Shown here: one piece after another, positions 1 through 12,050 of the stretch
Layout of the letters: each line of letters starts with the position of its first letter
Numbering within the stretch: position 1 is the first letter of the stretch
Assembly (NCBI GenBank): GCA_903831815.1
Contig: CAIKZC010000001.1
Location: 20,188-84,187 of the forward strand
From: an uncultured bacterium
GTDB taxonomy: Bacteria; Patescibacteriota; Minisyncoccia; Phycocordibacterales; UBA11359
Reading direction: 5' to 3'
Length of the DNA stretch: 64,000 bases
Translations under genes and position numbers: made by a program
Notes under the pieces: generated by a model
The model's input: only the letters and a program-made list of their open reading frames with translations
Database searches by the model: none
What the model was told of the DNA's origin: nothing

Positions 1-420
1 GTCCATCCTATCCGCGAGCGCCATACCCACAGCTTGCGAGAGACCTTCACCAAGCGGCCCGGAACTTGTTTCTAAAAACGGCAAAAAATCGCGATGCGGA
101 TGTCCTTGCAAACGTGAACCAAATTTTCGTAATGTTTTTAATTCTTCGATTGGAAAATATCCGGCATGAGCCAGAGTTGCGTACAAAACCGGACAAATAT
201 GGCCGTTGGATAAAATAACGCGGTCACGTTCGATCCAATCCGGATGTTTCGGGTCGTGATGTAAAACATGAAAATACAATGCCGTAAAAATATCGGCCAT
301 ACCAAGAGCACCGGCCGTATGTCCGGAACCGGCCGCCAACAACATCTCAATAATCGACTGACGAATATCGTTAGCTTTTCTTTCTAATTCAATGATCTTG
401 TTGCCGCTAATGTCGTCCAT
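1..420 (-). CDS. transketolase, N-terminal (TPP-binding) subunit; 3' part continues beyond window start
   Basis: Manual translation of the minus strand from the ATG at 418-420 gives MDDISGNKIIELERKANDIRQSIIEMLLAAGSGHTAGALGMADIFTALYFHVLHHDPKHPDWIERDRVILSNGHICPVLY..., the signature of a split-transketolase N-terminal subunit. It is absent from the ORF track because there is no stop inside the window. Confidence 0.7.
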   Translation of the reverse strand, partial: MDDISGNKIIELERKANDIRQSIIEMLLAAGSGHTAGALGMADIFTALYFHVLHHDPKHPDWIERDRVILSNGHICPVLYATLAHAGYFPIEELKTLRKFGSRLQGHPHRDFLPFLETSSGPLGEGLSQAVGMALADRMD

Positions 421-450
421 TTTTAAATTTTAAAAAACGCCGTTTTTTTG

Positions 451-1155
451 TTAATTTCCAAGATGTTTAAATTCTTTTATCGTCGCACCAATATCTTCAC
501 TTTTAAAAATCGCCGAACCAACCACCAATCGATTCGCGCCGGCGGCAATAAGTTCGGGTGCCGTGTCTAGAGAAACCGCTCCGTCAACACTTATTATAAT
601 CTTTGGGTCGTGTGCTCGCAATGTGCGAATCTTGCCCAAAACTCTTTCATCAAAAGGATTTCCCTGCACACCAATTTCCGCGATGCCCATAAATTGTATA
701 AAATCGATTTTATCCAGAAAAGGATAAAGAGATTCGACTGGTGTATCAATATTTTGCGCGACACCAATCTCACAATCAAAAACATCCGGTTGTTCGCTTT
801 TTGGGAAGCGCTCGCGAAAATCCGATAGGATTTTCGCGAGATTGTCCGTGCTCTCTTCATGTACTACAATGCGTCGCACACCGGCAGCGATCCAATCATT
901 TATCACTTCCTCCGGTCTCATGACCATGAGGTCAACCTCAAAATCAAACTGATCCCAATAAGGCAAACCTTCATCTTCATGTAAAATACCTTGAAAATAT
1001 TCTTCGTCTTCAGTGTACGGCCAAGAAACATCTTCCACAAATTTTCCATCCATAACATCAATTTGTGCCACAGACATATGTCCCGCCACCTGCGCCAGTT
1101 TAGATTGGAGGTCAGTTGTGCTAGTTGGCATCACCGCCGGAATAATTTCGATCAT
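451..1155 (-). CDS. rpe: ribulose-phosphate 3-epimerase
   Basis: 234-aa ORF with the DVMDGKFV motif and C-terminal VVGSAIF motif typical of Rpe; full-length TIM-barrel size. Confidence 0.9.
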   Translation of the reverse strand: MIEIIPAVMPTSTTDLQSKLAQVAGHMSVAQIDVMDGKFVEDVSWPYTEDEEYFQGILHEDEGLPYWDQFDFEVDLMVMRPEEVINDWIAAGVRRIVVHEESTDNLAKILSDFRERFPKSEQPDVFDCEIGVAQNIDTPVESLYPFLDKIDFIQFMGIAEIGVQGNPFDERVLGKIRTLRAHDPKIIISVDGAVSLDTAPELIAAGANRLVVGSAIFKSEDIGATIKEFKHLGN

Positions 1156-1207
1156 TGTGAATTAAATAAAAAAATAATTTTAAATCTTCTATATTTTTCT
1201 GTTTTAT

Positions 1208-1726
1208 TTAAGGTTTAATTTCTTCAATTTCCTCAATTCTCCTCTTATGCCTTTCTTCACCGGAAAAAGGCGTTTCCAACCAAAGTTTTACTGCCGCTTT
1301 AGCTTCGTTTTCATCCAAAAACTTTGCTCCAAGAGAAAGAACATTAGCATCATTATGCTGACGCGAAAGTTCAATAATGCGCATGGCGGTAATCGCTTCC
1401 ATTTCCGCTTTTTTAGCAGTATTTTTATTTTGTCCATCTTGCTCCAAACCAAAACCATAATAGACCGCTGCACGCACGTGTGGAAATTTGTTAGCCACCA
1501 TTGCCTCACCTTGACCCGACGCACCAATTACAATTCCTTTTTCCATTCCGGCATGTTTTGAAATTTCATGTGCGACAGGAGTAATATAATCCGGATAATC
1601 ATCACTTGGATCAAGTTTTTTCGGTCCGCAATCGTGCACTTCATATCCAAGCTCTTCCAAAAAAGGTTTCAAAGCCTCCTTCATCTCAAACCCCGCATGA
1701 TCCGACCCGATAATAATTTTTTTCAT
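1208..1726 (-). CDS. rpiB: ribose-5-phosphate isomerase B
   Basis: 172-aa ORF starting MKKIIIGSDHAGFEMKEAL... (RpiB/LacAB family N-terminus, about 150 aa core plus short tail). Confidence 0.85.
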   Translation of the reverse strand: MKKIIIGSDHAGFEMKEALKPFLEELGYEVHDCGPKKLDPSDDYPDYITPVAHEISKHAGMEKGIVIGASGQGEAMVANKFPHVRAAVYYGFGLEQDGQNKNTAKKAEMEAITAMRIIELSRQHNDANVLSLGAKFLDENEAKAAVKLWLETPFSGEERHKRRIEEIEEIKP

Positions 1727-1781
1727 ATTTATCTTATTTATAAATTTTCATTCATCATTTTACATAATGGATGACCTTTTT

Positions 1782-2111
1782 TTATGAAAACCCAAATAAA
1801 TTACCGCTCAATATAGCAACAAAGAACGATAATATTACAAAAACTACCGCTATTACAGCCAATGTTACCAATAATCTTTTTGCAAATTTTTTATATTGTA
1901 TTCTATCACTTATCGTATTCCCCGACTTAGCTGACAGTTTTCCATATATCCACCCTACAGCTGATCCAATAATTATGGCCAAAATAGATATAGTAAAAAA
2001 CGTAGATATAAAATCATGTCTATCTTCACTAAGTGCAAAACTTATTAACCAAAGCACAATCCAAACACTTTCAAATGAAATCGCTCCAAGTAACCAATAT
2101 TTTTTATTCAT
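1782..2111 (-). CDS. hypothetical small membrane protein (3 predicted TM helices)
   Basis: 109-aa ORF, hydrophobic stretches; located inside the Fic cassette; no recognisable family. Confidence 0.4.
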   Translation of the reverse strand: MNKKYWLLGAISFESVWIVLWLISFALSEDRHDFISTFFTISILAIIIGSAVGWIYGKLSAKSGNTISDRIQYKKFAKRLLVTLAVIAVVFVILSFFVAILSGNLFGFS

Positions 2112-2200
2112 AAAATTTTAAATATTTTATCGATTCTGCTGTCTTAACTACATGATCCACCAGCGTGTACATATACCACCATCTCATTGTCGTATATTTT

Positions 2201-2749
2201 TTATTTATAAAAATCTTCTTCTTCGTAGTAATATGACTGCTCCACACCCTTCATGAAAACTTCACGATCATCAATTTTATCGGTCAAGGCACCACGCAAA
2301 AGCTCGCAAATTTCGAGACTATTCACTGGGCTACGTTGCATAGCGTTCAAATAATCCGCTTTATCAATCTTTAACCAATCAACGCATTGTCTAAGATTTT
2401 TTTTCAATATCAAATCTAACCAAATTCTCATACTCCTACCGTTGCCCTCCATAAACGGATGTGCGATATTCATTTCTACGTATTTGGCTACAATTTCTTC
2501 AAAAGTACTTTCTGACATTTCGCTAATACTTTTTAAACTTTCACTCAGATATAAACAAGAGGCAAACCGGAAACCACCTTTGCTTATATCCTTTGTTCGA
2601 ATTTGGCCAGCAAAATCGTAATGACCACCAAACAAATATTCGTGAATTTGTTGCAACCCTTTTGCTGTACCAATCTCAAAACTGTCAATTTCTTGACTAC
2701 CAAACAGTTTTTTAGCACGTTCTTTGCTGATTTCGTCAACTTCTTGCAT
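2201..2749 (-). CDS. Fic family protein (Fido fold, probable AMPylase)
   Basis: 182 aa with the canonical Fic active-site motif [12 protein letters not shown] (HxFx(D/E)GNGRxxR). Confidence 0.8.
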
Positions 2750-2786
2750 AGCGATATTATACCATTTTTATTGACATTTTTCTAGT

Positions 2787-3197
2787 TCAAAACCAAACTC
2801 TTCCAAAAAAGGTTTCAAAACCTCCTTCATCGCAAACCTCGCATGATTCGACCCGATAATAATTTTTTTCATATTTTATTTTTTTCGAAATACCCCCCCA
2901 AAAAATCATGATAATAAAAAGATAGATAATGTAAGAGAAAACCAAATCAATAATATGTAGACTAGGACAATTTAAATAACTAGGAAAACTACTTGCCTGG
3001 TCTCTGCAGGATGCTGGTGCAACAAATAAATCGATTATTGCTCCTGGAAAAGTCGGGACTATAACTAAAACTGAGTTTATTGAACTACTGTCCAGAATAT
3101 CATTTTTTTGTGATTCACTTGTGAAATCAAAAAATACAAGCATAATTACAAAAATAACTGTTAACACTACAAGGCTTTTTATAGGTAATATTCTCAT
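2787..3197 (-). CDS. hypothetical membrane protein; C-terminal ~30 aa read out-of-frame through the rpiB fragment
   Basis: 136-aa ORF with an N-terminal signal/TM segment (MRILPIKSLVVLTVIFVIMLVFF). Its 3' end overlaps the duplicated rpiB fragment in another frame, giving a chimeric tail. Confidence 0.4.
   Translation of the reverse strand: MRILPIKSLVVLTVIFVIMLVFFDFTSESQKNDILDSSSINSVLVIVPTFPGAIIDLFVAPASCRDQASSFPSYLNCPSLHIIDLVFSYIIYLFIIMIFWGGISKKIKYEKNYYRVESCEVCDEGGFETFFGRVWF
2789..2872 (-). pseudogene. duplicated 5' fragment of rpiB (first ~28 codons, truncated)
   Basis: About 82 bp with ~90% identity to 1649-1730, the rpiB start region. In the rpiB frame it reads MKKIIIGSNHARFAMKEVLKPFLEEFGFEL*. 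It forms a direct repeat flanking the Fic cassette. Confidence 0.7.
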
Positions 3198-3203
3198 ATA
3201 CAG

Positions 3204-4232
3204 TTATTTTATCGACTCAGCTGTTTTAATAACGTGATCGACCAAAGTGTATGTATACCCCATTTCGTTGTCGTACCAAGCGAAGACTTTGACGAGATTG
3301 CCGCCAACGACGCGAGTGAGAGCGAGGTCTGCGAGCGAAGCATATTTGCAACCGACAATGTCTGATGAAACGAGCGGTTCTTCAGTCACAGAAAATACTT
3401 TACTCCAACGATCGGATTTAGCCGCTTCTTTCAAAATATTATTTACTTCCTCGGCAGTCGTGTCTCGTTTTGCGATAAAAGTAATATCAACGATCGAGCC
3501 AACTACGACAGGCACGCGAATTGAAACACCATCAAACTTGCCTTTCAAATCAGTCAAAACTTTGGTCACAGCGATGGCGGCACCGGTCGATGAAGGCACG
3601 ATGTTTTGCGCTGCGGCACGTCCTTCACGAAAATCTTTTTTGTTTGGTCCATCCACAATTCCCTGACTGGCCGTGTAAGCATGCACAGTGTTAAGCAAAG
3701 CTTTTTCAATTCCAATTTTTTCGTGCAAAATAGCGATAAGTGGTGATCCGGCATTGGTCGTGCAAGAAGCGTTTGAACTGATCACGCAATTTGCCAAAGT
3801 ATCATCATTGATTCCCATGAGCACGGTGCCACCAGCAATGCCTGGCAAAGGTTCGTCTTTGACCGGTGCACTGATCACAACTTTTTTAGCTCCGGCAGTA
3901 ATGTGAGCTTGAGCTTTTTCATAAGTCGTGAAAAGTCCGGTCGATTCAACCACAACATCGATTCCAAGAGCGCCCCATGGCAATTTAGCCGGATCTTTTT
4001 CACTTAAATATTTTATCGCTTTGCCATCCACCACAATACTGTCGCCTTGTACTTCCACAGAAAAATCGCTCACACCGTAAGCCGTGTCGTATTTCAAAAG
4101 ATAAGCAATGCTTTTGATGTCACCAAGATCATTCATGGCCACGATCTCAATTTCCGGATGTTGACGCGCGACTTTTAGAAAAGCTCGCCCGATTCTGCCC
4201 GCACCATTTATCGCCACTTTAATTGTTTTCAT
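3204..4232 (-). CDS. gap: glyceraldehyde-3-phosphate dehydrogenase
   Basis: 342 aa; N-terminal NAD-binding INGAGRIGR motif and catalytic SNASCTTN motif. Confidence 0.9.
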   Translation of the reverse strand: MKTIKVAINGAGRIGRAFLKVARQHPEIEIVAMNDLGDIKSIAYLLKYDTAYGVSDFSVEVQGDSIVVDGKAIKYLSEKDPAKLPWGALGIDVVVESTGLFTTYEKAQAHITAGAKKVVISAPVKDEPLPGIAGGTVLMGINDDTLANCVISSNASCTTNAGSPLIAILHEKIGIEKALLNTVHAYTASQGIVDGPNKKDFREGRAAAQNIVPSSTGAAIAVTKVLTDLKGKFDGVSIRVPVVVGSIVDITFIAKRDTTAEEVNNILKEAAKSDRWSKVFSVTEEPLVSSDIVGCKYASLADLALTRVVGGNLVKVFAWYDNEMGYTYTLVDHVIKTAESIK

Positions 4233-4283
4233 ATTTGCGTATCTATTAATATATAAAGGTATATTTAGTATACCACAGGCTTT

Positions 4284-5729
4284 TTACTTCAAAATCACAC
4301 TTTGACCGACCGTAAATCCGCCGTTTTTGACCGTTCCGGCCGGCAATTCCAAAACATATCGTACAGGTACGTGAGGCATGTATGCTTTTGGATAACTTTC
4401 CGGTGTCATATTTTCCACAATATCGCTAATTTTTAAATCATCAGTTATCCACAAAACATCAATTGGAAAGTTCATGTCTTTCATCCAAATCCCCCAGCCT
4501 GAATCATAACCAAAAACAAAAAACATGCCGGCGTTTGGAGCCAACGATGTTCTGCTCGAAAGACCTTGAATTTGTTCAGCTTCGGTCGTCGCCAATTCAG
4601 CGTTGATATAAATATTTCCGATTTGAATTATTCGAGAATTGGACGTATTTTTTAAATCGGAAATATTTCTTGGTAAAACCATCTCACCGTTCGGAACTTC
4701 TAGAACCTCGAGGTCTTTTTGTCTTTCTTCACCCACTAAAACATTAGATTGTTGATTTAAGATCGAAATCGGAAATAGATCATAAGTCACATTTTCCGGA
4801 GTCAAAGAAATTTTAACCGCCAAACCGCGAGTGGTCGGGCCGGTATTAGCTTGATCAAAAATAAAATTACCGAGGGAATAGAAAATGAATTTATTTTTAT
4901 AATTTTCTATTGGCTGGATCACATGAGGATGTGAACCAATCACAACATCGGCTCCAGCGTCGATGAAAGAATGTGCTGTTTTTATTTGCGTAGATGTCGC
5001 GTTCATTTCGTATTCGTTGCCCCAATGCGCATAAACAACCACGAAAGAGACTTTATCTTTCGCGTTTTGAATTGCTTGCAAGACATTTTTCAACCCTTGC
5101 TGCGCAAATTCGTTGTAACCGATAAAAGCAAGTTTTTCATCTCGGACTTCGGCAATATATGGCGTAACATCTTGATTTCTTGGATCACCAAACCAATTCA
5201 ATCCCGCTTTTTCTATTGAAGAAGTCGATTGCCTAAAACCGGCCATGCCAAAATTAAGAGTATGGTTGTTGGCTTGATCAAGTAAAGTAAAACCTAGATC
5301 TTTGAGTGTCGGCAAAAGTGCCGGATCAAAAGTAAATTGCAACGGTCCATCTTTTACACCGACCGTTAAAGAATTATTGTAAGTAAAAGGACCTTCGGCA
5401 TTTGCCACCACGATGTCATTGGCATTTCCGGTTGCATCTCCCCTCAAAAAATCCTTGATCAAAGCAAAAGGATATTCCGGACCGTTTAAATCTATCTGCT
5501 CCCTAACTTTTCGATCAAGCATCATGTCGCCAAAAGCTAGAATCGTCACAGGTTTCAATGCAATGGGTTTTACTTCAGACAAAACACTTTTTGACGAATT
5601 TGAGACAACCGAACTAAACCAACCGAAGTTAGTTTGACCGTAAAGAAGCAAACCAAATAAGCCAATAACAAAACACCACAATAAACCGACAATAAAAAAA
5701 ATAGTTTTTTTATTCATTAACAAAAACAA
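4284..5729 (-). CDS. CapA/PGA_cap-family metallophosphatase fused to a C-terminal DUF192-like domain; N-terminal membrane anchor
   Basis: 481 aa. Central region has CapA-like motifs (ILAFGDMMLDR, DQANNHTLNFG, VVYAHWGNEY). The last ~110 aa (GMFFVFGYDSGWGIWMKDMNFPIDVLWI...) resemble DUF192. Confidence 0.55.
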   Translation of the reverse strand: MFLLMNKKTIFFIVGLLWCFVIGLFGLLLYGQTNFGWFSSVVSNSSKSVLSEVKPIALKPVTILAFGDMMLDRKVREQIDLNGPEYPFALIKDFLRGDATGNANDIVVANAEGPFTYNNSLTVGVKDGPLQFTFDPALLPTLKDLGFTLLDQANNHTLNFGMAGFRQSTSSIEKAGLNWFGDPRNQDVTPYIAEVRDEKLAFIGYNEFAQQGLKNVLQAIQNAKDKVSFVVVYAHWGNEYEMNATSTQIKTAHSFIDAGADVVIGSHPHVIQPIENYKNKFIFYSLGNFIFDQANTGPTTRGLAVKISLTPENVTYDLFPISILNQQSNVLVGEERQKDLEVLEVPNGEMVLPRNISDLKNTSNSRIIQIGNIYINAELATTEAEQIQGLSSRTSLAPNAGMFFVFGYDSGWGIWMKDMNFPIDVLWITDDLKISDIVENMTPESYPKAYMPHVPVRYVLELPAGTVKNGGFTVGQSVILK

Positions 5730-5732
5730 TCC

Positions 5733-6038
5733 CTAAGAATTACTGGCAATACTTGCGCGAACATCGATAAGTTTTTTCTGATCGTTCAACTCTTTGGTCA
5801 TTTTATCAATTTCCTTAATAGCAGACATGCCCTCTTTTTGCAATCGAACTTTTTGTTCGCCGGCTTCCACGTCAATATCGACGGCTTCCATAAAAAATTC
5901 GAACATTATTTTCTTTTTCAGGTCTTCCGGTAGTTCATTTATATGTTCGGACAAATACGCCCGAGCACCCTTCTCATCACCATTTTCGACAAATGCCATG
6001 AGAGTCTTATATAGTTCTGAGATTTTGTTGGTATCCAT
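5733..6038 (-). CDS. hypothetical protein
   Basis: 101-aa acidic ORF, no recognisable motif; tightly spaced downstream of the 374-aa ORF (possible operon). Confidence 0.4.
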   Translation of the reverse strand: MDTNKISELYKTLMAFVENGDEKGARAYLSEHINELPEDLKKKIMFEFFMEAVDIDVEAGEQKVRLQKEGMSAIKEIDKMTKELNDQKKLIDVRASIASNS

Positions 6039-6057
6039 TTTATTAATATTAATGAAA

Positions 6058-7182
6058 TTATTTTAAGCTAGCTTTTTTAGTATCAATAAAAGGATTGAAC
6101 AGATTTGCGAAGATAGCTCCCCAAAGTCCACGACCGGAATATTTTTTGCCATCCTTTTTCAAACCGTCGACAAATTCATCTCTGATACGATCTTTTTCAT
6201 CGTCGTCGAATTTATCCCAAGACTTATGTTTTTTGGAGACATTTTCCTGTATACATTCTTCCCACATTTGATCGACTTTTGGATCAGAAGGAAAAGTATT
6301 TTTCATATCTTTAAATCCTACCCTTTCCACTTTCAAAGATTCACCAAAAATCGCTTTTGATAAAGCTGCTGTCATATCATAATTACCCTTAATAGTTGCA
6401 CTCAATACTGAACCAATATTTTTTTTATGGTTTTCGAGCTCTGCAAGCCAAGCGCCAACTTCATTTTTTTTTGCTTCGAGCGTCTGAACATCTTTACCGG
6501 AACCGCTCCCTGCAAACATGGTATCAAAAAGTCTTCTATACCACCCCAAAAAACCATCTCCCCAAGATGCCCGAACCATTTCTGAAAAAGCTTCTTCACG
6601 TTTGGAATGATCTTTTATCAACATTGCTTGAGCATAAGCAGTTTCATCCCAACCGTTTTCATCGCACATTTTTTTAACCGAATCATCCAATTTTTTTCGA
6701 CTGTCTCCTTCGTCGCTTTGTTTTTGCTCGATAGCCTTTAAAAGTTTCTCAAAGCGTGTCGAATCACTTATCGCAAGTTCATTCAACCTCGAATCAACAA
6801 CATCCTTCATGTTATCCGCTGTAACTTTCCCAAGTAAGGCTTTAAATTCCTGATCATTTTTACCAAGATCGGTAATTAACTCCACAGTTAACTCTTTTTT
6901 AATAGTTTCAACCTGATCCATCTTTTTTTCAAATGCTACTCGTTGCTTTTCAAGACGATCGTGGTCTTCTTGACGGATCTCTGATTTGGCGATCTGATCA
7001 GCGAGCTGTTCGTCCTCTTCTTCCCCAGTATCAACAAGCATTTGAACAAACAAATCACTTTTTTCCTTGTCAGCTAAAATCTCCTTGACTGTCAAAGGTT
7101 CTTTTTCAACTATTCCAGCTTTCGCTTTTTCTTCCTTATCAATCCTCTCTTGCTCCCTTTGGTATGCTTCGGTTATTCCCAT
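6058..7182 (-). CDS. hypothetical K/E-rich coiled-coil protein
   Basis: 374-aa ORF with charged, heptad-like composition; no recognisable catalytic motif. Confidence 0.4.
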   Translation of the reverse strand: MGITEAYQREQERIDKEEKAKAGIVEKEPLTVKEILADKEKSDLFVQMLVDTGEEEDEQLADQIAKSEIRQEDHDRLEKQRVAFEKKMDQVETIKKELTVELITDLGKNDQEFKALLGKVTADNMKDVVDSRLNELAISDSTRFEKLLKAIEQKQSDEGDSRKKLDDSVKKMCDENGWDETAYAQAMLIKDHSKREEAFSEMVRASWGDGFLGWYRRLFDTMFAGSGSGKDVQTLEAKKNEVGAWLAELENHKKNIGSVLSATIKGNYDMTAALSKAIFGESLKVERVGFKDMKNTFPSDPKVDQMWEECIQENVSKKHKSWDKFDDDEKDRIRDEFVDGLKKDGKKYSGRGLWGAIFANLFNPFIDTKKASLK

Positions 7183-7401
7183 AGTATTAATTGATCCTAG
7201 TAATAAGATTTATACATATAATATTACTCCAAGACACGAATAATTACCATTGAGAAAAAATAAACTCTGCGGGCTGTTTGGTTCGAAGTTGGAACCTTTA
7301 TAAGCACAGTATACAACAAAAACACCCCTTTGTAGGAGTGTCTTTGTAAGCTTTTAAACAAGAGGAAATATGATCCACCGTCTTACGTATCGTTAGACTG
7401 A

Positions 7402-8109
7402 TTATCCTTGTGTTTGAGGGAGACACATAAACGACTCAAAAACCGGAGTTAAAGAAATGGTGGGTAGTACGGAACTGATTAAAAAGTTTGCAGACTCTTG
7501 CAAATCACCCTTCCCAGAAACCCTAACGGTCAATAAACTGGCACTATTTTTGCTTAATACGGTTGCTTGAAGCACAGGGTTTTTTACATCTGGATTAGAA
7601 CACTCTGTGCATGTTTTTGTACCCGCCACATGAGCAATATAACCATTGGTTAATGTGATTGTTTTATCTAGATCCGGTTTACCAAAACCATACGCAACAA
7701 TGTTATCTTTTGGATAACCCGGCCAACCACACTGTCTTGGGCTATACTGAACAGTAATTGAGTCTGTCTTTGCTTCAAAATTATTCATACCACCATCAAC
7801 AAAGTTCCTTTCCTTGATTACCTCAGGGCCTGCATATTTAAATCCAAATCCATATTGAGTATTTGTATACGTTTTCAAATTACTCATCTGGTTAGACGGC
7901 GTTGTGTTCGTCTTTACAACAGCTTGATTGGTCGGAGTGTTTTGAGTAGTTATAGGCTGAGTGTTTCCGGTCGTTGTCTGAGAACTATTTACTTGTTGTG
8001 TCGTCTGACCATTACTTTGTGAATAAATATAAATACCAAATGCTAACACCAATAAAACAATAATTATTGATAAAACCAACACTGCCGAACCTTTTTGTGT
8101 ATTTTTCAT
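7402..8109 (-). CDS. hypothetical membrane-anchored surface protein with Thr/Gln-rich linker
   Basis: 235 aa: N-terminal TM helix (AVLVLSIIIVLLVLAFGIYIY), a T/Q/N-rich low-complexity linker, then a Cys-containing globular domain. Confidence 0.4.
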   Translation of the reverse strand: MKNTQKGSAVLVLSIIIVLLVLAFGIYIYSQSNGQTTQQVNSSQTTTGNTQPITTQNTPTNQAVVKTNTTPSNQMSNLKTYTNTQYGFGFKYAGPEVIKERNFVDGGMNNFEAKTDSITVQYSPRQCGWPGYPKDNIVAYGFGKPDLDKTITLTNGYIAHVAGTKTCTECSNPDVKNPVLQATVLSKNSASLLTVRVSGKGDLQESANFLISSVLPTISLTPVFESFMCLPQTQG

Positions 8110-8206
8110 ATTGTGTTTAATGGTACAACATATTTTACAAAATGAACAGGTGCGTGGTGTAAATTGAATTTTTAAGGAAAACGAGTAGTATTACGTTCAT
8201 AATTTT

Positions 8207-9124
8207 ATGGATCTGCTTATCGCACAATTAGACCAAAAATACAAAGACTTCTTGCGTAATTTGAACTACAAAGAACCTGCCGATTCTGTAGCTTTTGGCC
8301 ATGCGTATGACTACTTTTGTATCATTGAAAAGCAACCTCGAATAAAAGAAATTATCGAAAACGATAGGAAGGAAATTGGATATAAAAAAGATGCTGTCGT
8401 ATTTAATCATCCTTCAATTGACGAGCAAAAAGACATAATGGACAGAATTGAGTGGAATTCCTTGTCTTTCTGCTATGACGAAATGTCGAGAGATATGTAT
8501 ATTCCTACTCTTAAATACAAAAATTCACTTGATGTACTTACACCGAAAGACATCATCGGCATAACTGAAATCCGCCGAGAAAAGTTTATAAGTTTCATGT
8601 TCTATCTCGTCAAAAAAGTAGGAAAATGGTTTGTAACCGATCGATCAGATTCCGACATTGATAATAGAATTGCTCTAGGCAAAATCGAATACAATTTCAA
8701 GCAAGAAAAATATCAGGTCTATATGAGTCGAATCCACTCAATTCTCATTCCTCAACTTTTAGAAATTCACACCAAGAAACCGATAGATGTGTCTGATCCG
8801 GAAGACCTAAACGGCATTTCTTTCGATAAAGAAAATAGCATTTTAAAAATCGGCGACAAAGAGGTAAAAATTACTTTGAAAAATGATAAAACAAACGGTC
8901 ATTATGTTCTCGAATATCTTTTTGAAAATGGCGTGGAAAATCCAGCCGATTATAAAGACATCATCATATCAAAATTCAAAGGCGACAGGAAAGATAACAT
9001 GTCCATTTATCGAGCTTGCAATGACATCAACAAAAAGGTTTCCAAACAAGCCGGTGTAGGTGAATTTTTGGATATTCACAGCGGAAAAACGGGCTGGGTT
9101 CAGATATATTCTAACTTTCTCTAA
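8207..9124 (+). CDS. hypothetical protein (element-borne)
   Basis: 305-aa ORF, no recognisable motifs; first gene of the plus-strand block. Confidence 0.45.
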   Translation: MDLLIAQLDQKYKDFLRNLNYKEPADSVAFGHAYDYFCIIEKQPRIKEIIENDRKEIGYKKDAVVFNHPSIDEQKDIMDRIEWNSLSFCYDEMSRDMYIPTLKYKNSLDVLTPKDIIGITEIRREKFISFMFYLVKKVGKWFVTDRSDSDIDNRIALGKIEYNFKQEKYQVYMSRIHSILIPQLLEIHTKKPIDVSDPEDLNGISFDKENSILKIGDKEVKITLKNDKTNGHYVLEYLFENGVENPADYKDIIISKFKGDRKDNMSIYRACNDINKKVSKQAGVGEFLDIHSGKTGWVQIYSNFL

Positions 9125-9194
9125 AGTTACCCGTAAAATACGGTAACGCTGAAAATATAAGATTGCCTCGCACAAACAAAGTGCGAGCTTTTGT

Positions 9195-9425
9195 ATGTCT
9201 ACATTTTCAAAACAACTGGTCGATAAATGTATCGAATATTTCAAACGTGTTCATCACACGGATATTTCCGTTGATACAGCCAACGAATACCTGCACTCCT
9301 TTGCCAAACTCTACCTAGCTTTCAATCGACCAAACGGCGGGGGCGGCGCCCGCTCCTTATGGGGCGGCGAGGCCCCGCCGGTGGGGGTGACTCCTAAAGT
9401 TATCCTAGGTGTTAGTAACACCTAG
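9195..9425 (+). CDS. hypothetical small protein (doubtful; 3' half lies in a GC-rich hairpin region)
   Basis: 76-aa ORF. The N-terminal 45 aa look protein-like; the C-terminal part (GGGGARSLWGGEAPPVGV) is encoded by GC-rich hairpins that are more likely a replication origin. Confidence 0.2.
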   Translation: MSTFSKQLVDKCIEYFKRVHHTDISVDTANEYLHSFAKLYLAFNRPNGGGGARSLWGGEAPPVGVTPKVILGVSNT

Positions 9426-9426
9426 G
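9335..9426. promoter_or_regulatory. GC-rich hairpin cluster plus perfect 23-bp palindrome CCTAGGTGTTAgTAACACCTAGG (9404-9426); candidate double-strand origin / recombinase site
   Basis: Seen directly: about 70% GC hairpins (GCGGG..CCCGC, CGGC..GCCG) followed by an 11-bp perfect inverted repeat with a 1-nt spacer, 20 bp upstream of the Rep_trans gene start. Confidence 0.35.
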
Positions 9427-9445
9427 ATACGTTGCAATATACAAC

Positions 9446-10498
9446 ATGATAGATACTGTTAAATTCTTAATACCCATGACTGATCAAACCATAATTGATC
9501 AACTTAAACATACCCTAAAACGCTTTAAAAAAGATGATATGAAAACTGGCGAAATAGAATTTGAGTTTTTTAGCAGTAACATCGAGCTTGGCTCATACCA
9601 CCGAACTGTGGCAATTAAATCAACAGAATTACCACTCGGATTTTTCATTGAATTCTCAGCTCCTAAATATTCTAAGGGTAACAATGTTGAAATGATATAT
9701 CCCCATGAACTGCCGGAAATAGTAGCGAAACTATACGATGAATTATGCACCCACATGAACTACAAGCTCCCTGACTTTAACCTCTGGCCTGTATATCGTT
9801 TAGACGTCTGCTACAACTGGCTTTTCAAAGATGAAAGTGAAGCTATGTATGCCATGAACTTTCTGCGCCGTATCGACTACCCCCGAAAAAAGAAACATAC
9901 CTACGACACATCCGTCATGTACCAAGGTTCTGCCTACACGGTCAAATTCTATTTAAAAGGTGCCGAGTTTAAAGTTAACGATTCCAAGAAAATCGAATTC
10001 AAGCGAGCGGTCAATCTACAATCATGGGCTAACCGGATTGTGCGGTTTGAAGTGAACCTAAAGAAAACATACCTACAACAGACATTTTTAGTGGACAAAG
10101 TATATTTACAAAATATTATTGATGATACTGTTATCGAACAAATCCTAAAATATTATTTAGAAGACAAAGTCTTTAAATATCTCAACATCAACTCCATGAC
10201 GGATGAAAATATCAAGCAAATTCTTTTTGAAAATTTCACTAAGACAAAATCCATGCGACTATATCAATTTTACAAGGGTTTCTTTTTTGATACCGAGATT
10301 AAAGATATGTTAATTTCCGGTGGTCTCAATCGCAGTACCATATACCGTTACAAAACTGATCTGAAGCGTGTCGGGGTTGGTATCTCACTTGAGAAACTAC
10401 CCGAAAGTAAGAATATTTTAGAGCAGTTAGTCATTCCATCCCCAAATTCACAATTTAATTTGATTGATTATGTTGATTATAAAATTTTAGAAGCATAA
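9446..10498 (+). CDS. rolling-circle replication initiator, Rep_trans (pT181 RepC-like) family
   Basis: 350 aa. Three blocks match pT181 RepC motifs: YRLDVCYNW (cf. TRLDLAFDF), YTVKFYLKG (cf. RFIRIYNK) and RIVRFEVNLKK (cf. WRVEIELKR). Confidence 0.55.
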   Translation: MIDTVKFLIPMTDQTIIDQLKHTLKRFKKDDMKTGEIEFEFFSSNIELGSYHRTVAIKSTELPLGFFIEFSAPKYSKGNNVEMIYPHELPEIVAKLYDELCTHMNYKLPDFNLWPVYRLDVCYNWLFKDESEAMYAMNFLRRIDYPRKKKHTYDTSVMYQGSAYTVKFYLKGAEFKVNDSKKIEFKRAVNLQSWANRIVRFEVNLKKTYLQQTFLVDKVYLQNIIDDTVIEQILKYYLEDKVFKYLNINSMTDENIKQILFENFTKTKSMRLYQFYKGFFFDTEIKDMLISGGLNRSTIYRYKTDLKRVGVGISLEKLPESKNILEQLVIPSPNSQFNLIDYVDYKILEA

Positions 10499-10508
10499 TA
10501 TAGCAACC

Positions 10509-11960
10509 ATGAAATACATTCTCTATTGCAGAAAATCAACCGAGTCGGAAGACAGACAGATTCTGTCACTTGATTCTCAAAAAGATGAGCTAACAAAGCT
10601 TGCTACCAATCAAGGTTTTCAAATCGTCAAAACCCTGCAAGAAAGCAAATCAGCTAAAGCACCCGGCAGACCTGTATTCAATGAAATGCTGAAACTAATC
10701 GAGACCGGAAAAGCTGACGCGATTCTGTGTTGGAAAATAGATCGCCTGGCTCGCAACCCAGTGGACGGCGGACAGATACAATGGCTGTTACAAAATAGCA
10801 AAATAAAATGTATTCAAACTTTTGAAAAATGCTACTATCCCAACGACAATGTTCTCCTCATGTCTATCGAACAAGCCATGGCTTCGCAATACATCAGAGA
10901 CTTAAGCACCAACGTCAAACGTGGCAACCGAGCCAAACTCGAAAAAGGTGTCTGGCCAAATCGTCCTCCATTCGGATATGACAATGACCGATTAAACAAA
11001 ACGATAATCGTTGATCAAGAAAATTCAAAATATCTCATTCGGGCTTTTGAACTCTACTCCACCGGCAGTTATGGTTTCAAAGAAATCGGCAACATACTAT
11101 ACAAAGAAGGACTACGAACAAAAACTGGCAAGAAATTCTTTTCTGGCAAAATACATAAATTTATAAGTAACCCATTTTACTATGGTGTCATGCGCATGGA
11201 CGGCAAACTATACAACGGCACTCATACGCCACTCATCTCAAAAGAGTTATTCGATCAAACTCAAGACGTGCTACACAACAGAAACAGACCACGACCTAAA
11301 AATCACTTCTTCCCACTTCGGGGATTTATGTCCTGTGAAGTCTGCGGCTGTTCATTAACCGCTTCGCTTAAAAAAGGTCATCACTATTACTACTGCACCA
11401 ACAGCAAAGGTGTCTGCACCGAACACAAAACCTACATGCGAGAGAGCAAACTATATCCTATCGTGGCTTCACTTTTTGAAAAGCTCAACCTGGATGAAGA
11501 AACTATTGAAATGATGTACCAAGCCGCTAAAGAGGAGACCGGCCACGCCACTGAATACTCAACCACCACTCTTTCTTCCCTTCAAAGTAACTTAAATGCC
11601 CTCACAGCAAAAGAAAGCAAACTACTTGATACTTTGCTCGCTGAACATATTACACAGGAGGTATACCACGACAAGGCTATTGAAATACAGAACGAGAAAG
11701 TCACACTAAAGAAACAAATCGCCGATCTTGAACTGAAAAGCAAAAACATTATTTCCACCTTGGAACCAACCAAAGAAATCTTTTTACGAGCAAGTAGAGC
11801 CAAAAAAGAGTTTATCGCCGGCGATGATTCAAAAAAGCGTGATATAGTAGAAACTATACTTTGGGACCTTTCGATGAAAGAACAGAAAATGGCTCAATAC
11901 AAGTTTAAAAGTCCGTATGCGAGCTTCCTAAAACTGCCTAAAAAAACCCGTCTTTTTTAG
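10509..11960 (+). CDS. large serine recombinase (resolvase/integrase)
   Basis: 483 aa. N-terminal catalytic domain with YCRKSTE (active Ser), central recombinase domain, Cys-rich zinc ribbon (CEVCGCS...YYYCTNSKGVC) and C-terminal coiled coil. Confidence 0.85.
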   Translation: MKYILYCRKSTESEDRQILSLDSQKDELTKLATNQGFQIVKTLQESKSAKAPGRPVFNEMLKLIETGKADAILCWKIDRLARNPVDGGQIQWLLQNSKIKCIQTFEKCYYPNDNVLLMSIEQAMASQYIRDLSTNVKRGNRAKLEKGVWPNRPPFGYDNDRLNKTIIVDQENSKYLIRAFELYSTGSYGFKEIGNILYKEGLRTKTGKKFFSGKIHKFISNPFYYGVMRMDGKLYNGTHTPLISKELFDQTQDVLHNRNRPRPKNHFFPLRGFMSCEVCGCSLTASLKKGHHYYYCTNSKGVCTEHKTYMRESKLYPIVASLFEKLNLDEETIEMMYQAAKEETGHATEYSTTTLSSLQSNLNALTAKESKLLDTLLAEHITQEVYHDKAIEIQNEKVTLKKQIADLELKSKNIISTLEPTKEIFLRASRAKKEFIAGDDSKKRDIVETILWDLSMKEQKMAQYKFKSPYASFLKLPKKTRLF

Positions 11961-11965
11961 AACTG

Positions 11966-12050
11966 CGGAGGGTAGGAGATTCGAACTCCTGAAGGGTTGC
12001 CCCTTACACGCTTTCCAAGCGTGCGTACTAGACCACTATACGAACCCTCC
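11966..12050 (-). tRNA. tRNA-Ser (anticodon GGA), long variable arm
   Basis: Minus-strand cloverleaf: acceptor GGAGGGT/ACCCTCC, anticodon stem CACGC/GCGTG with loop TTGGAAA, long variable arm, T-arm AGGAG-TTCGAAT-CTCCT, discriminator G. Confidence 0.85.

Follow-up and report, generated by a model that had tools for sequence, protein, structure and literature searches.

A Fic gene lies within an operon of central-carbon genes in an uncultured bacterium of the Patescibacteriota, on a 64,000-nt stretch of contig CAIKZC010000001.1 that we refer to as the window and to which all coordinates apply unless another locus is named. It is situated between gap and rpiB, with a second, truncated copy of the rpiB start on its upstream side. 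The question that this locus raises is whether the Fic gene is a mobile toxin module that was recently inserted into the operon, as a first-pass annotation had proposed, or a resident around which other DNA has been added. To this end we compare the locus with related loci and contigs (L-numbers) and with homologous proteins (P-numbers). The comparison argues that the Fic gene is an old member of the gap-rpiB interval and that it encodes a self-inhibited enzyme of class III. We lean, without strong conviction, towards a history in which this resident gene was flanked by two additive recombination events that brought in units carrying two small membrane protein genes, memA and memB.

Every gene in window positions 1-5800 is on the minus strand, and read in that direction the order is PGA_cap-DUF192, gap, memA, a remnant of the rpiB 5' end, Fic, a remnant of the gap 3' end, memB, rpiB, rpe and the gene for the transketolase N-terminal subunit (Table 1). 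The reading frames for Fic and for the 109-aa and 136-aa proteins are all as the first-pass annotation had described them. Comparison of the region with itself, which that annotation had suggested, confirmed the repeat of the rpiB 5' end on which its proposal was built and brought out a second repeat that it had missed. The first pairs 1640-1745 with 2786-2891 (106 nt, 88% identity) in a repeat search, and blastn over the whole 64-kb window pairs 1640-1730 with 2786-2876 at 92.3% identity over 91 bp (E 5e-34) and finds no third copy there. This is far beyond chance. The second involves the end of gap, as approximately its last 72 nt (3205-3275) recur at 2123-2194 with 80.6% identity and a 1-bp indel (E 1e-13). 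This gap 3' remnant is directly downstream of Fic, starting 6 nt past the Fic stop codon and ending just ahead of memB. The two repeat pairs are consequently interleaved around Fic, giving the layout gap3'-memA-rpiB5' / Fic / gap3'-memB-rpiB5'.

Both remnants are decaying pseudogene copies of the gene ends of this lineage. When the rpiB of L171 is used as an outgroup to polarize the differences between the remnant and the intact rpiB, 6 of the 7 turn out to have arisen in the remnant, whose changes are almost all non-synonymous and alter the region of the GSDHAG motif. The gap remnant is frameshifted, with most of its differences from intact gap likewise derived in the remnant, and its protein reading after the 1-bp insertion is YMYTLVDHVVKTAESIK as compared with YTYTLVDHVIKTAESIK in intact gap. 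It is these derived changes in the one and the frameshift in the other that give both the look of decayed copies of the genome's own genes. The truncated rpiB fragment recognized by the first-pass annotation is thus a pseudogene, with 29 rpiB codons in a 34-aa reading frame. Additionally, the last 29 codons of memA run through the rpiB remnant out of frame, and a comparison of frames bears out the chimeric C-terminus that had been proposed for the 136-aa protein. This tail owes its existence to an A-to-C change in the remnant, which abolished a TGA that closes the memA frame in the intact rpiB copy. A simple tandem duplication followed by divergence is excluded as the source of the repeats since memA and memB are dissimilar although their flanks are 80-92% identical. 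An RNA element within the repeats was also considered and discarded; the repeats contain no Rfam match and no terminator-like site.

The residence of Fic at this locus was assessed by synteny in eight lineages, the window included, from the contexts of Fic homologues with 83-91% identity. Six other Patescibacteria lineages (L171, L176, L186, L191, L197 and L201) have Fic between gap and rpiB, and a seventh (L194) has it beside pgl-zwf. For example, L186-190 (Zambryskibacteria protein, Rifle groundwater) have the order gap-Fic-rpiB-rpe-tktN-tktC, which in L186 is tightly packed and has no remnants, while L197-199 have gap-Fic-ORF103-rpiB-rpe-tktN. The closest relative, L171/172 (amino acid identity 91% for gap, 87% for rpe and 80-81% for rpiB), has gap, ORF100, Fic and rpiB. 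Taylorbacteria loci L191-193 have gap, three open reading frames (ORFs), Fic, ORF115 and rpiB-rpe-tkt; L176-185 have gap, a small ORF, Fic, MazG and, further on, rpiB; and L201 has gap, ORF293 in reverse orientation, Fic, NUDIX and, further on, rpiB-rpe. In L194 (Nomurabacteria GCA_016196605.1, 4001-6312) Fic is not next to gap or rpiB but is directly upstream of the 6-phosphogluconolactonase and glucose-6-phosphate dehydrogenase genes of the oxidative pentose-phosphate pathway (Fic-pgl-zwf), and so is again linked to pentose-phosphate metabolism. Genes of the nucleotide pyrophosphohydrolase type (MazG, NUDIX) occur beside or near Fic in L176 (6560-6859), L201 (5621-6136) and L194 (7419-8006), and their presence in three lineages may reflect a functional association.

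Substitution rates calculated by the Nei-Gojobori method are consistent with long residence. In deep pairs the proportion of non-synonymous differences (pN) is 0.05-0.11 for Fic as compared with 0.19-0.25 for gap, so that at non-synonymous sites Fic evolves 2-4 times more slowly than GAPDH. The proportion of synonymous differences (pS) is 0.62-0.82 for Fic in most pairs, with gap pS near saturation; in the pair of window and L176 it is 0.40 for Fic versus a saturated 0.79 for gap. The combination of low pN and mostly high pS argues that Fic is a long-term resident under very strong purifying selection, stronger than that acting on gap. A rampant recent spread of Fic, which protein identities of 82-91% set against 55% for rpiB could have suggested, is largely excluded by synonymous sites that are near saturation in most pairs. 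The family is slow-evolving generally, as seen also in a full-length match to the Neisseria meningitidis protein NmFic (E 4e-74), and only the pair of window and L176 looks exchanged. Taken together, conserved synteny, slow evolution and the conserved promoter described below argue that Fic is no freshly dropped toxin cassette, and the proposal of a recent insertion into the operon is not supported.

Two further ideas about the origin of Fic and its surroundings were set aside. In IMG/VR, 126 stretches of viral contigs encode class III Fic homologues, and NmFic-type genes are hence common on predicted phage contigs; none among the best 80 of the 126 (L091-L170) is close to the CPR (candidate phyla radiation) type, their identity being 61-66%, and a phage origin was rejected on that ground. 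A seemingly hypervariable small ORF upstream of Fic in Hainich strains was found to be a single protein, for which calls of 106, 110 and 119 aa differ only in the start codon that was chosen.

Fic matches PF02661 and the NmFic-type equivalog model NF046029 (289.9 bits against a cut-off of 230, covering profile positions 2-177 of 177), and its residues 1-177 align with the solved NmFic chains in the PDB. The active-site motif HxFx(D/E)GN(G/K)RxxR is present at residues 97-108 (2426-2461) and is invariant in nine CPR homologues. The C-terminus contains SYYYEE (2219-2236), in which S172-Y-Y-Y-E176 aligns with NmFic S182-E186. Two of the three specified positions of the inhibitory motif (S/T)xxxE(G/N) are therein matched, the inhibitory Glu included, while the last position is Glu instead of Gly or Asn and is invariant in the nine CPR homologues. 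On this evidence Fic is predicted to be a class III enzyme that is inhibited by its own C-terminal helix through E176 and not half of a toxin-antitoxin pair, as the first-pass annotation had allowed when it raised the possibility of an intramolecular inhibitory helix. That annotation had also seen no partner antitoxin, and rightly so. The 34-aa ORF upstream of Fic is an rpiB fragment without the (S/T)xxxE(G/N) motif of a class I antitoxin, the gene downstream is different in every lineage examined (memB, rpiB, MazG, ORF103, ORF115, NUDIX or pgl), and no neighboring small gene is conserved beside Fic across these lineages.

Comparison with characterized Fic proteins supports the same assignment. 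NmFic has AMP-transferase activity, undergoes auto-AMPylation, is controlled by concentration-dependent tetramer formation and targets GyrB (PMC12894286). Mutation of its inhibitory helix Glu (E186) to glycine relieves inhibition (PMC3667792), and roles of both E186 and Y183 have been described (PMC3667792, PMC12894286). The window Fic has the same length and architecture as NmFic (class III; PDB 2G03, 3S6A, 5CGL), the active-site motif HPFxEGNGRSxR, no separate antitoxin, and an S-Y-Y-Y-E helix that includes the inhibitory Glu and a Tyr aligned with Y183. It differs in that SYYYEE ends in Glu rather than Gly or Asn, in having Glu at the position that corresponds to Y188, the second site of auto-AMPylation, and in being encoded by a CPR host inside a gap-rpiB-rpe-tkt operon with a predicted promoter of the leaderless type. 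With class I modules such as VbhT/VbhA and FicT/FicA it shares the fold and the catalytic motif, and it gives weak matches to models of VbhT and E. coli Fic; however, it has no small upstream antitoxin gene and scores far below the cut-offs of those families. The window Fic is therefore a further member of the NmFic class III family, and both the gene and the process that shaped its surroundings are ordinary. By analogy with NmFic, it may function by AMPylating a target connected with growth, for instance GyrB.

Fic also has a promoter-like element of its own. A -35-like TAGAAA (2784-2779) is separated by a 17-nt spacer from a TG-extended -10 TATAAT (2761-2756) that ends 6 nt ahead of the ATG, and with a score of 10/12 plus the TG this is the best promoter-like site in window positions 1100-4400. 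All seven other lineages show conservation of a stretch of approximately 38 nt ahead of the Fic start codon, which includes an invariant TGnTATAAT that ends 6-7 nt before the ATG. The consensus of this element is AACTAGgAAAATATCnnTAAAAATGGTATAAT; it occupies 2750-2787 in the window and is found also upstream of Fic in L171, L176, L186, L191, L194 and L197. In L186 the gap stop codon falls within it. We predict that Fic is transcribed as a leaderless mRNA from this extended -10 promoter. In the window the end of the rpiB remnant coincides exactly with the start of the promoter element, and the gap remnant follows the Fic stop codon at a distance of 6 nt, which leaves the Fic unit intact.

The interval between gap and rpiB is variable beyond the lineages that carry Fic. 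Many species representatives have gap and rpiB adjacent without Fic (L011, L014, L015, L021, L026, L027 and L034). In others the interval is occupied by an AbiEii-family toxin gene with a small ORF (L020), by ORF113 with a GIY-YIG gene (L016) or by a membrane ORF (L013), and larger inserts are present in L017, L023 and L029. Two conserved flanks hence enclose differing whole-gene cassettes, namely nothing, Fic, AbiEii, GIY-YIG with ORF113, membrane ORFs, and MazG or NUDIX, which is what defines a variable site. Scars similar to those of the window are also found in relatives. The ORF100 of L171 has a duplicate of the gap 3' end just ahead of it (5066-5153 vs 5236-5323, 77%) and a remnant of the rpiB 5' end behind it (5614-5691 vs 6544-6622, 75%). 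This ORF100 is 73% identical to ORF113 of the Fic-less L016, where it lies between intact gap and rpiB; a MazG-like identity for ORF100 and ORF113 was considered and found no support in Pfam or NCBIfam. L191 has two remnants of the gap 3' (C-terminal) end. In L020 (Parcubacteria GW2011_GWC1_45_13) the AbiEii-family gene and a 69-aa ORF (962-1932) are bracketed by a 43-bp direct repeat of the rpiB start with 97.7% identity, a footprint of the same type as that in the window but in a genome that lacks Fic. Gap 3' remnants precede accessory ORFs in three lineages, and the remnants differ in length and position between lineages. The first-pass annotation had named an identical arrangement in all relatives as the finding that would speak against an insertion. 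Relatives do share Fic at the locus, but the arrangement of repeats is not shared, with comparable independent remnants in L171, L191 and L020.

The two membrane ORFs of the window are AT-rich and lineage-specific, with 30-31% GC as compared with 41-45% in the flanking genes, and they have no similarity to each other. A search of 5.8 billion proteins returned no homologue of memA other than itself. Two proteins, P0123 (40% identity, E 2e-15) and P0124, are distantly homologous to memB and have the same layout of three hydrophobic segments, and memB is a member of a rare small-protein family. Since ORFs of 109-136 codons are unlikely to arise by chance in DNA of 30% GC (our own estimate), memA and memB are probably real genes.

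Table 1. Features of the gap-rpiB region, with window coordinates and the evidence on which each is based.
Feature	Coordinates	Strand	Basis
PGA_cap-DUF192 fusion, 481 aa	5729..4284	-	
gap, type I GAPDH, 342 aa	3204..4232	-	TIGR01534 372.5 bits; Pfam Gp_dh_N and Gp_dh_C
memA, 136-aa ORF, 2 hydrophobic segments, 31% GC	2787..3197	-	ORF listing; protein search
rpiB 5' remnant, ~15-19 nt upstream spacer and 29 codons, ATG at 2872	2786..2891	-	repeat search
34-aa remnant ORF MKKIIIGSNHARFAMKEVLKPFLEEFGFELEKCQ, first 29 rpiB codons and 5 unrelated codons	2872..2768	-	
Fic promoter (predicted)	2756..2784	-	best promoter-like site; cross-lineage alignment
Fic, predicted class III (NmFic-type) AMP-transferase, 182 aa	2201..2749	-	NF046029, PF02661, NmFic PDB chains
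gap 3' remnant, ~last 24 gap codons, frameshifted, 72 nt	2123..2194	-	repeat search, alignment
memB, 109-aa ORF, 3 hydrophobic segments, 30% GC	1782..2111	-	ORF listing; distant homologues
rpiB, intact, 172 aa	1208..1726	-	PF02502, NF004051
rpe, downstream part of operon	1155..451	-	PF00834
transketolase N-terminal subunit, gene start only	420..1	-	translation

How did the gene ends come to be repeated around a resident gene? The first-pass annotation took the repeat as the footprint of a recombination or duplication event, and in this we concur. In the history that we lean towards, the gap-rpiB interval would be a variable slot with two conserved flanks and a class III Fic as its usual occupant, to which two lineage-specific units were added, one on either side of the resident gene. 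One unit would consist of memA with the rpiB 5' remnant and lie between gap and Fic, the other of the gap 3' remnant with memB and lie between Fic and rpiB. Each would have been copied from a junction of gap 3' end, small membrane gene and rpiB 5' end in a closely related genome, and each addition would have involved one homologous arm, in gap or in rpiB, and one illegitimate join. As to mechanism and order of events, we infer either homology-facilitated illegitimate recombination or the single crossover of a circularized fragment after DNA uptake, with addition and no allelic replacement as the outcome, such that a truncated copy of the far flank would be left behind and then decay.

There are known processes that resemble this scheme. 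Homology-facilitated illegitimate recombination, which has been described for natural transformation in Acinetobacter (cf. PMC3410848, PMC8116780), inserts foreign DNA beside an anchor by means of one homologous anchor and one illegitimate join. It would fit both a join of gap, memA and rpiB remnant just upstream of the Fic promoter and a join of gap remnant, memB and rpiB just past the Fic stop codon, and at this locus it is the scars that point to it. The minimal mobile elements of Neisseria, in which conserved flanks enclose differing cassettes that are exchanged by homologous recombination (as defined in PMC3082526), are similar in that gap and rpiB are conserved, the content between them varies and there is no dedicated recombinase inside. 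However, partial duplicates of the flanks have been left behind in the window, as in additive exchanges rather than clean replacement, and Fic as one of the occupants is not strain-specific but conserved over deep lineages. Transformation of the host is in this comparison an assumption.

The divergence of the two repeats is unequal, 7/91 for rpiB versus 14/71 for gap (Fisher p=0.033), and this weakly favors two events of different age. Several observations weigh against that history. The p-value is itself weak and is based on only ~160 nt, a donor genome with gap-memA-rpiB or gap-memB-rpiB was not found among the loci compared, memA is without any homologue, and the synteny comes from just eight lineages. 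The low Fic pS between the window and L176 indicates at least one transfer of Fic from one lineage to another. Moreover, the interleaved order gap3'...rpiB5'...gap3'...rpiB5' is also expected from one crossover of a circle that carries Fic, which requires fewer events. This alternative, which we regard as possible though rather doubtful, is that an intermediate, circular or in tandem, came from a related genome with Fic, contained Fic and one gap3'-mem-rpiB5' junction, and entered a Fic-less gap-mem-rpiB locus by one Campbell-type crossover. Such an event would duplicate both gene ends around Fic and would produce the interleaved order exactly; the direct repeats could later excise Fic. The model is a refined form of the view of the first-pass annotation. 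The AbiEii cassette of L020 has the same topology, with an rpiB 5' remnant before and the intact rpiB behind it, and the Fic of L171 is likewise flanked by an rpiB 5' remnant on one side and the intact rpiB on the other. Loci with gap and rpiB but no Fic are common, and the exchange between the window and L176 shows that Fic can move between lineages. These points are offset by the presence of Fic at this locus in six other lineages with a synonymous divergence that is mostly as high as that of their hosts, and by the unequal divergence of the repeats. The source of the rpiB remnant was almost identical to the rpiB of this genome, and the decay of the gap remnant has gone much further. In addition, memA and memB are unrelated, and the crossover would therefore have had to be confined to <100 bp of homology.

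Two other explanations leave recombination history aside. It would be very improbable, in our view, that the repeats are maintained as functional features, with the rpiB leader and first codons driving or coupling translation of Fic, or the gap 3' end acting as an RNA or terminator element ahead of memB. The remnants do abut the Fic unit and memB precisely, and the recurrence of gap 3' remnants ahead of accessory ORFs in three lineages could be taken in the same sense. Yet Fic has its own conserved promoter at the ATG in all lineages, most of which have no rpiB remnant, and the almost exclusively non-synonymous changes, the frameshift, the lack of an Rfam family or terminator-like site, and the differing length and position of remnants elsewhere all speak against such a role. 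We give almost no credence to an assembly artefact, in which strain variants would have been joined chimerically at shared sequence. Contigs from the source samples do end repeatedly within this 1.4-kb region, at the module boundaries 3171, 2884, 2206, 2148, 2094 and 1786 as well as at 2569 and 2514 within Fic, which hints at polymorphism at the level of cassettes or at Fic sequence shared across species in the assembly graphs. Also, scaffold L010 opens with 213 bases that match neither the window nor the other loci and are joined to gap at window position 3721, probably as a scaffold chimera or a rearranged variant. However, contigs L001-L010 from several BUCK21-1 samples and from MEGAHIT-style and Logan assemblies are colinear with the window at 99.9-100% identity and jointly span every junction (L002 covers 3281-2094; L004/L005 cover 2569-548), and since these contigs of different samples and assemblers cross all of the junctions the arrangement is genuine. 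Repeat copies that are only 80-92% identical are, moreover, too diverged for collapse or mis-joining.

No recombinase gene is present between gap and rpiB, and the locus does not have the marks of an integrase-driven island or integron, as its repeats are gene fragments of 80-92% identity and not att cores, and its boundaries are free of strong inverted repeats. The first-pass statement that no recombinase is nearby was nevertheless inaccurate. At a distance of 7.6 kb there is a gene for a large serine recombinase (10509-11960), which abuts tRNA-Ser(GGA) (11965-12050). Together with four ORFs without family matches (5733-9124) and a gene for a Phage_CRI rolling-circle replication protein (9446-10498), it forms a stretch beside the operon (5733-12050) that appears to be an integrated element separate from the Fic locus. 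No att-like repeat was found for this element, and L171 carries different genes upstream of PGA_cap and lacks it; a link between the element and the Fic locus was dismissed for these reasons, and the recombinase is probably unrelated. Upstream of gap, PGA_cap and DUF192 form one 481-aa ORF in the window (4284-5729) as compared with separate genes (339 and 154 aa) in L171 (2572-4060). In L191 a Y1_Tnp transposase gene of the IS200/IS605 type (978-1658) is directly upstream of gap, and in L197/L198 the operon has a further accessory insertion (7008-8340) between the genes for the N- and C-terminal subunits of transketolase, made up of two small ORFs together with Gp49 (HigB-like) and HTH genes.

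What had been read as a mobile toxin cassette is thus replaced by a well-known NmFic-type family in a recombination-prone slot amid the scars of gene ends. The recurrent gap 3' and rpiB 5' remnants are direct sequence evidence that allelic loci recombine additively in these organisms, which are not amenable to culture. A wider generalization is a long shot, namely that in CPR bacteria of the Paceibacteria type the gap/rpiB junction would be a recombinase-free site of cassette capture at which toxin-like and nucleotide-handling genes (Fic, AbiEii, MazG/NUDIX-type and small membrane proteins) are stacked by additive homologous or illegitimate recombination, and that class III Fic would be a quasi-core regulator coupled to pentose-phosphate and glycolytic genes and no addiction toxin. 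The latter part is suggested because Fic is more conserved than GAPDH, has a promoter to itself and, in 8/8 of the lineages examined, shows linkage to either gap-rpiB-rpe-tkt or pgl-zwf. The conserved linkage of Fic to pentose-phosphate genes is of some interest in itself. The retention of a class III Fic amid genes of central carbon metabolism in CPR bacteria, whose genomes are very small, and its rate of evolution, which is below that of GAPDH, argue that it has a housekeeping role in regulation. The class III Fic genes of CPR bacteria would also provide a clean set for comparative work on the function of class III Fic proteins.

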